Origin: Escherichia coli
GTDB taxonomy: Bacteria > Pseudomonadota > Gammaproteobacteria > Enterobacterales > Enterobacteriaceae
Reading direction: 5' to 3' (one strand)
DNA length: 64,000 nt
Assembly: GCF_044647545.1 (NCBI RefSeq)
Contig: NZ_CP172818.1
Made by a program: the position numbers. This document shows, in pieces, positions 31,101 to 34,100 of this stretch (position 1 is its first letter; every line of letters starts with the position of its first letter).

Positions 31101-34100
31101 TCACCATCGCCCGTTCCACCACAGAAGGACTTCCTTTTGCATCGAGAAACGAGATTAACGCCTCGCCGGTCCCCAGTTCCTGGATTGCCTTTTCCGTATC
31201 AAATGCAGGGGTGGGGCGCATGGTTTGCGCCGCAGCTTTTACCGCTTTCTGATCTTTGGGCGTAAAAGCACGCAAAGCGTGTTGAACGCGATTACCGAGC
31301 TGGCCGAGCACATTATCTGGAATATCAGACGGGTTTTGCGAAACGAACCAGACGCCCACGCCTTTTGAGCGAATAAGCCTTATCACCTGCTCAATCTTAT
31401 CCAGCAGTACCTGCGGGGCATCGTTAAATAGCAGATGTGCCTCGTCGAAGAAAAACACCAGTTTTGGTTTCTCCAGATCGCCCGCTTCCGGCAATTGTTC
31501 ATACAACTCTGAAAGCATCCACAGCAGGCTGGCGGCGTACAGTTTCGGCATCTGATAAAGTTTCTCGGCGCTGAGGATATTGATAACGCCTTTACCGTTG
31601 GCATCGGTGCGCATCCAGTCTTTGATATCCAGCATCGGCTCACCAAAGAAGTGTGCTGCGCCTTGCTGTTCCAGCGACAACAGCCCGCGCTGGATGGCAC
31701 CAACCGATGCGCTACTGATATTTCCGTACTGATTCTGGAAGGATTTGGCGTTATCGCCGATGTACTGGGTAATTGCCCGCAGATCTTTAAAGTCGAGCAG
31801 TAACAGCCCCTGATCGTCAGCAATGCGGAAAATGATATCCAGCACGCCAGATTGCACATCGTTGAGATTCAACAGTCGCGCCAGCAACAGCGGTCCCAGA
31901 TCCGAAACCGTCGCCCGCACCGGATGGCCTTTCTCGCCAAAGATATCCCACACCACCACCGGATTGGCATGCGGTTGCCAATCATTGACGCCGATATTTT
32001 TAAGCCTTGCGAGCAGTTTTTCCGACGCCGTTCCTGCCTGCGCGATACCGGTCAGATCGCCTTTCACATCAGCCATAAACACCGGCACGCCGATTTCCGA
32101 CAATGACTCTGCCAGTTTTTGCAGCGTAACGGTTTTACCCGTCCCCGTTGCGCCGGTAATCAGCCCGTGACGGTTCGCCATTCCCGGCAGTAAAAACAGT
32201 TCTGTGTCCGGCGTGCGGGCAATTAACAGGGGTTCGCTCATGAGATTTCCTCCAGTTTCCTGCCTGGGAAAGGGGCGCAGGCACCCGGCAAAGGGATCAG
32301 AAGTCGGCTTTCAGGACCACTCGGTAGCGCGCTTTACCATCGCGTACATGCTGAATGGCGTCGTTAATTTTCGACATCGGGAACAATTCGGTAGTCGGCG
32401 CAACCTTGCTGCGGGCGGCAAAGCGCATCAGCTTACGCAACTCATAAGGCGTGCCGGTAGCAGAACCAGAGACGCTGCGGTCGCCCGCAATTAACGTAAA
32501 GGCCGGAACAGACAGCGGCGTGAGAACCGCACCGACCGTATGGAAATTACCGCCGTACGTCAGCGCTTCAAAATAAGGCTGCCAGTCGAGGCTGACGTTG
32601 ACGGTGTTGATAATGAGATCAAACTGCCCCGCCAGTGCTTTCAGTGCCTGCGGATCGCGGCTATTCACCACTTTATCGGCACCCATCGCCAGTACTTCCT
32701 GCTCTTTCGCCGGATTCGAACTAAAGGCTGTCACCTCGCATCCCATTGCGTGCAGAAGTTTTATAGCGATATGCCCCAGCCCGCCAATACCAATTACCCC
32801 AACGCGGCTGGTGGCAGTGATATGGTGCATTAACAGTGGTTTGAAGACCGTGATACCACCGCACAACAGCGGCCCGGCGGACTCGATATCAATATTTTCT
32901 GGCAGTGGAATCACCCATTGCCAGTCCGCACGCAACTTCTCGGCAAAGCCACCGCGATTCATAATCGTCGGCACCGCACCTTGCTCACAGTTGATCTGAT
33001 TACCGCTAATACAGGCATCGCAATGCCCGCAGCTACGCGCCGTCCAGCCAATCCCGACACGCTGACCGACCTGCAAACCTTTATCCTGCGCGGCGCTCCC
33101 GAGCGCCACCACGCGACCAATCACCTCATGCCCGGCAACCAGCGGATATTGTGAAAATCCCCATTCGTTATCGATCATCGACAGATCGGAATGGCAGATC
33201 CCGCAGTAATCCACCTGCACTTCAACATCTTGTGGCTTCAGTTCACCGGGATCGTACTCATAAACTTCCAGTTCGCCGCCTGCTTCTTTTGCGGCATAGC
33301 TTTTTATCATCGACATTTTTTGGTCCTTCTCTGGTGTTGTCTGGGAAGTGTAGAGCATGGCAGGGCGGGGTGCCTGGAGTGTGACAAAGGTTACACATCG
33401 CTGTATGCAATGCTGAAAATTTCAGCACTTAGCGAGGTGCGAGCAAGCTGGCGCTTGCATGGTGGCGTGCGACAGGTATAATCCACAACGTTTTCCGCAT
33501 ACCTCTTCAGTGCCGAAGTGGCGAAATCGGTAGACGCAGTTGATTCAAAATCAACCGTAGAAATACGTGCCGGTTCGAGTCCGGCCTTCGGCACCAAAAG
33601 TATGTAAATAGACCTCAACTGAGGTCTTTTTTTATGCCTGAAATCCAGTGTTTATCTATCTTTCCCGCTATATTAACTCTCTCAAGGTCAACCGATATCA
33701 ACGTACATCTACCAACATATGTTGGTACAGATGATGGTATTTCCGGTTCGATAATGCTTGTACCAACAGGGAGGGAATACGCATGGCATTAACAGATATC
33801 AAAGTCAGAGCAGCCAAGCCAACGGATAAGCAATATAAGCTGACTGATGGTGGCGGTATGCATCTGCTTGTCCATCCAAATGGTTCTAAGTACTGGCGTT
33901 TGCAGTACCGTTATGAGGGAAAGCAAAAAATGCTGGCACTTGGGGTTTATCCTGAAATCACACTAGCGGATGCCAGAGTACGTCGTGACGAGGCGCGTAA
34001 GCTGCTTGCGAATGGCGTCGATCCGGGAGACAAAAAGAAAAATGATAAGGTTGAACAGAGTAAAGCACGAACCTTTAAAGAAGTCGCGATTGAGTGGCAT

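Follow-up and report, generated by a model that had tools for sequence, protein, structure and literature searches.

The question raised by this locus is whether the L-idonate (idn) genes, which K-12 carries between yjgR and ahr, were lost from the Escherichia coli strain whose DNA is analysed here (a stretch of 64 kb, the window). At the yjgR–ahr site, which is polymorphic with two alleles, the window very probably has the common, cassette-free one, and the strain would therefore not have lost idn. In one allele, the 5.1-kb GntII/L-idonate cassette idnK-idnDOTR separates the ahr stop codon from the last 39 bp before the yjgR start; in the other, a conserved spacer of about 129 bp takes its place, with the ahr terminator and the yjgR upstream region. 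A second question concerns the spacer of the window itself, which is abnormally short.

The yjgR gene (30739..32241, minus strand) encodes a HerA-like ATPase of 500 aa and is intact, by ORF call and by the RefSeq annotation of matching genomes; its ATG reads as cat at 32239-32241 on the plus strand. Profile matches of YjgR were limited to weak HerA/CedD-type NCBIfam models. Its identity was assigned from near-identical RefSeq genes annotated yjgR, and the exact protein is recorded in thousands of E. coli assemblies. The neighbouring ahr gene, for an NADPH-dependent aldehyde reductase, is intact on the minus strand and was called as an ORF at 32297..33358, with its stop codon reading as tca at 32297-32299. 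The product (Ahr, YjgB) matched the NCBIfam equivalog NF047908 at 554 bits (cut-off 470) over profile positions 1–335 of 335. Because this match begins at ORF residue 15, the real gene is placed at 32297..33316 and encodes 339 aa. Genes pepA, lptF, and lptG lie upstream of yjgR. A tRNA-Leu (CAA) gene, leuX, the attachment point of a KpLE2-type island, was detected using ARAGORN at 33512..33596 on the plus strand, and a tRNA-Leu is annotated at the same place in K-12 and in the idn-less E. coli CB209. The holC–pepA intergenic region (26457..26617) is 161 bp long in the window and in K-12. CB209 and AB66, in which it measures 354 bp, may carry an additional repeat-type insert of about 190 bp there.

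The first-pass annotation had placed idnR-idnT-idnO-idnD-idnK between yjgR and ahr in K-12, and a K-12 derivative is indeed annotated in the order yjgR, idnR, idnT, idnO, idnD, idnK, ahr, tRNA-Leu. A published K-12 table gives yjgQ > yjgR < idnR (PMC5493296). The K-12 insert is about 5.1 kb, of which about 5.09 kb is idn-specific; it extends from the ahr stop codon to within 39 bp of the yjgR start. These 39 bp are shared by the two alleles, and the private sequence beyond them is about 5.09 kb in K-12 versus about 90 bp in idn-less genomes. The K-12 GntII/L-idonate locus idnK-idnDOTR, reportedly described by Bausch et al. in 1998 in J Bacteriol, has the same flanks, yjgR and ahr, as the window, which retains 26 of the 39 shared nt immediately upstream of yjgR; the idn-specific segment of about 5.09 kb is absent from the window. 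The five idn genes that define the cluster are thus missing between yjgR and ahr. The same annotation had given the yjgR–ahr gap as 55 bp, reported idn as absent, and regarded the region as not K-12-identical, and each point agrees with the data. By sequence and ORF list the gap measures exactly 55 nt (32242..32296). Within the 64 kb covered by the window, no stretch matched any part of the K-12 idn segment. In all K-12-type genomes the match to the window ends at 32267 and starts again with the ahr stop codon at 32297.

The bases beside ahr identify the allele. The 18 nt adjoining the ahr stop (aggcacccggcaaaggga) equal those of CB209 exactly and are absent from K-12. Since these bases are allele-specific, the locus is of the idn-less type, whether the 55-bp length is real or an artefact. 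From 32273 to 34212 the window is 99.95% identical to CB209, with 0 mismatches and 1 gap, and ahr is without mismatch. Between 28 and 36.2 kb the two differ at 0–1 sites per kb, except in two blocks, the spacer and 34213..34815. Cassette-free E. coli (CB209, NZ_CM144249; O145 RM9872; O157:H7 strains) share the order lptG, yjgR, ahr, leuX and the ahr-adjacent bases with the window, in which ahr and yjgR are co-directional and adjacent. High divergence of yjgR was considered as a feature linked to the idn allele and rejected, being equally high between two idn-less genomes.

Allele frequencies were counted in 5426 RefSeq complete E. coli genomes. At least 80% of the idn segment is present in 2039 genomes, K-12 and E. 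coli B being among the carriers of the idn-positive allele; in all others the match is confined to the first 39 bp of the segment, which the empty allele has as well. Where present in complete E. coli genomes, idn occupies one place per genome. The 5′ end of yjgR and the 3′ end of ahr occur together in one short place in 3123 of the 5426 genomes. The full standard idn-less spacer was found in 3212, as single pieces at 95.7–100% identity among the matches listed, and about 175 genomes belong to neither class. The idn-less arrangement is therefore the commoner allele in this biased sample, about 59% against about 38% idn-positive, both being sample frequencies only. Presence or absence of idn is an already known accessory-gene polymorphism and is variable in published pangenome studies. 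The genes were found in 83% of pks-positive versus about 31% of pks-negative genomes (PMC8545132) and in 27 of 34 equipment isolates versus 15 of 80 carcass isolates (PMC10269509), and they are enriched in HUS-associated STEC (PMC4216125).

Outgroup loci came from a handful of species, among the matches listed in a scan of species-representative genomes, and serve here as comparisons rather than as a formal reconstruction of the ancestral state. E. albertii NBRC 107761 and Citrobacter werkmanii NBRC 105721 have ahr and yjgR adjacent without idn, as in the window, and carry a full homologous spacer of 129 and 136 bp, respectively, unlike the 55 bp of the window. Citrobacter sp. FP75 carries idnK-D-O-T-R with a left breakpoint identical to that of K-12. 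Nucleotide identity between K-12 and FP75 is 78.5–83.3% for the idn genes and 82–85% for lptG, yjgR, and ahr. With a divergence similar to that of the flanking core genes, idn appears to be old at the yjgR–ahr site. Outgroup loci and divergence together suggest that the two alleles are both of long standing, neither having arisen recently from the other. In Enterobacter cloacae (L016, 7122..9000), Enterobacter sp. Ag1 (L017, 7189..9000), and Pseudocitrobacter faecalis (L018, 7185..9000), the ahr–yjgR site is occupied by an opposite-strand gene of about 550 aa, whose product by eye looks dihydroxyacetone kinase-like. The site can hold idn, an empty spacer, or this gene, and its cargo therefore differs between genera. 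Two E. coli assemblies (L098 and L100, about 1780..3843) have no full ahr called; immediately upstream of yjgR they have an island integrase and an ORF of 69 aa. Some lineages may thus have had ahr and leuX-side sequence deleted or replaced.

The window spacer (32242..32296, minus strand) consists of 26 nt common to all alleles, an 11-nt filler, and the 18 idn-less-specific nt beside the ahr stop. The filler is the T-free 11-mer gaaaggggcgc (plus strand, 32268..32278) and replaces 85 bp of other idn-less genomes. Among 19 other idn-less loci, the spacer is 129 bp in 17 (16 E. coli and E. albertii), 127 bp in one E. coli, and 136 bp in C. werkmanii. The window spacer is 74 bp shorter than the 129-bp standard and unique among the loci read. 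Whereas cassette-free E. coli of the CB209 type have a conserved 129-bp spacer with a terminator hairpin and GTTGCCTATACT, the window lacks both. The missing 85 bp include the hairpin, a terminator-like structure with a 9-bp stem just after ahr, which is predicted in CB209 and not in the window. They also include GTTGCCTATACT, which is conserved upstream of yjgR in both alleles and all genera examined and may be a promoter-proximal element. Simple sigma-70 scans detected no promoter in the spacer of the window or of the CB209 type, so conservation is what a promoter role for TATACT would rest on. The yjgR ribosome-binding region (ggaggaaatctcATG) is kept.

Alignment showed that no single clean deletion of the standard spacer yields the window sequence. 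None of the 5426 E. coli genomes matched the spacer junction in a single piece, and no metagenome contig matched a 26-mer spanning it. A deletion scar or repeat at 32242..32296 had been proposed for checking; neither was found, the idn-less allele being old and common and having a conserved spacer of its own. No IS-like sequence was found within the 55 bp, and in K-12 the two borders of the idn segment share no direct repeat of at least 7 bp. The 9-mer CTTTGCCGG, present at the left border of idn-positive alleles and just after ahr in the empty allele, was considered as a recombination repeat and rejected as not significant (E = 5.7).

The second block that departs from CB209, and the only unmatched one in the window besides the spacer, lies 1.9 kb from the spacer, at 34213..34815 (plus strand). 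It is 603 bp long, with 78% G+C, 4% T (26 T), and C-runs of 11 and 14 at its ends. It had no match in the 5426 E. coli genomes or in plasmids, and it stands in place of 16 bp of the CB209-type intB′/eptA′ deletion junction, which is seen in about 2170 genomes. Alignments to IS2 identify the block as a T-depleted, lossy subsequence of the IS2 interior with C-run flanks. With T stripped from both sequences, the block and the K-12 IS2 interior aligned at 68.9 bits, compared with 36.0 ± 3.2 bits for 100 shuffles. The segment 34271..34610 aligned directly to IS2 with no insertions and two mismatches. Within it, 153 of 155 C, 102 of 172 G, 65 of 141 A, and 18 of 129 T of IS2 are kept. Because this is a strict subsequence with base-specific drop-out, the block is not biological; it almost certainly reflects an error of consensus or assembly. 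A transition-hypermutated copy of local sequence was rejected as its origin, purine/pyrimidine matching being at chance level. Elsewhere in the window, yjgL (17614..19427) is interrupted at a tandem 18-bp repeat encoding QKLNNL, giving ORFs of 233 and 342 aa, and no complete E. coli genome exceeds 93% identity to this 1.85-kb stretch. This region was considered as a sign of a chimeric consensus and is not diagnostic; it looks like natural mosaicism with repeat copy-number variation.

The exchange of 85 bp for an 11-nt filler is slightly more probably an error in the record than a genuine deletion private to this strain. The filler is T-free, much as the garbled block is T-depleted, and it lies 1.9 kb from that proven artefact in a haplotype otherwise essentially identical to CB209. 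The 55-bp form is also unique among the 5426 genomes, 15 further assemblies, and the metagenome scan. A real private micro-deletion on the cassette-free allele, with 85 bp out and 11 bp in (about 74 bp net), has a probability a little short of even. It would have removed the ahr terminator and the yjgR upstream element and joined ahr and yjgR in one transcription unit. In its favour, both flanks of the filler are clean and the ribosome-binding region of yjgR is intact. The filler also breaks the C-retention rule of the garbled IS2 block, keeping about 2 of about 20 C's in the 85 nt it replaces. However, the micro-deletion needs the filler or several extra substitutions, and these are unusual for E. 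coli deletions. A wider scenario, doubtful when taken as a whole, joins such a deletion, with yjgR made dependent on ahr read-through, to a history in which idn cassette and empty spacer, both forms occurring in Escherichia and Citrobacter, are old alleles that span genera. Selection on gluconate/idonate use would have maintained these alleles, or homologous recombination through ahr and yjgR would have exchanged them repeatedly.

Two further explanations would make idn part of this strain's history, and the allele-specific bases weigh on both. A K-12-like, idn-positive ancestor could have recently dropped the 5.1-kb cluster and left the 55 bp as a scar; the gap is unusually short, and the unmatched 11-mer could pass for junction filler. 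Such a deletion is nevertheless very improbable, given that the 18 nt beside ahr are specific to the cassette-free allele, that both flanks are within 0–1 sites per kb of cassette-free CB209, and that the allele with its conserved spacer occurs in 3212 genomes and two other species; flanking repeats and IS remnants are also lacking. Alternatively, the real genome could contain idn, dropped from the record when the region was garbled. Garbled sequence is demonstrably nearby, but the ahr 3′ end, like the 18 nt beside it, has the cassette-free sequence and the K-12-type junctions (tccggcaaagagaatacg... and ...gaatgattt) are absent from the window, which makes this collapse even less credible than the deletion of idn.

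As a carrier of the cassette-free allele, the strain is placed in the idn-less majority of E. coli, and the locus can serve as a simple typing marker. Judged from the known GntII pathway, L-idonate and 5-ketogluconate would not be usable by this strain through the subsidiary GntII route. A real short spacer would leave yjgR without its conserved upstream element and without a terminator separating it from ahr, and yjgR would be reached by read-through from ahr. At least one block of the record (34213..34815) is clearly garbled, and the same may hold for the 55-bp spacer. Fine detail near 32.2–34.9 kb should accordingly be interpreted with caution unless reads are at hand.

Beyond leuX, the window continues into a KpLE2-type island, in agreement with the resemblance noted at first pass. 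The tRNA-Leu (CAA) is followed by the 5′ part of an intB-like integrase (33783..34212, plus strand), an ORF with an NF007246 integrase domain that is truncated; the CB209 annotation likewise records an incomplete integrase. The chimeric integrase ORF of 162 aa had no exact match among recorded proteins, and the YjgR and ValS alleles of the window are too widespread to single out a strain. A single 29-kb alignment at 99.7% identity shows positions 34816 to 64000 to be collinear with K-12 KpLE2; this part contains IS4, nanXY, IS30, fecIRABCDE, IS1F, yjhU-yjhI, and sgc genes. IS4, IS30, and IS1F are at the same places in both. The window differs from K-12 in its integrase, truncated as in CB209-type genomes, and in the garbled IS2 block at the intB′/eptA′ junction. 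Past 36.3 kb (36300..53400), the KpLE2 part equals K-12 base for base outside IS copies and remnants. All 53 differences between the window and K-12 beyond 36.3 kb fall inside such copies or remnants (IS4, IS30-flanking remnants, an ISEc52 remnant, and IS1F).
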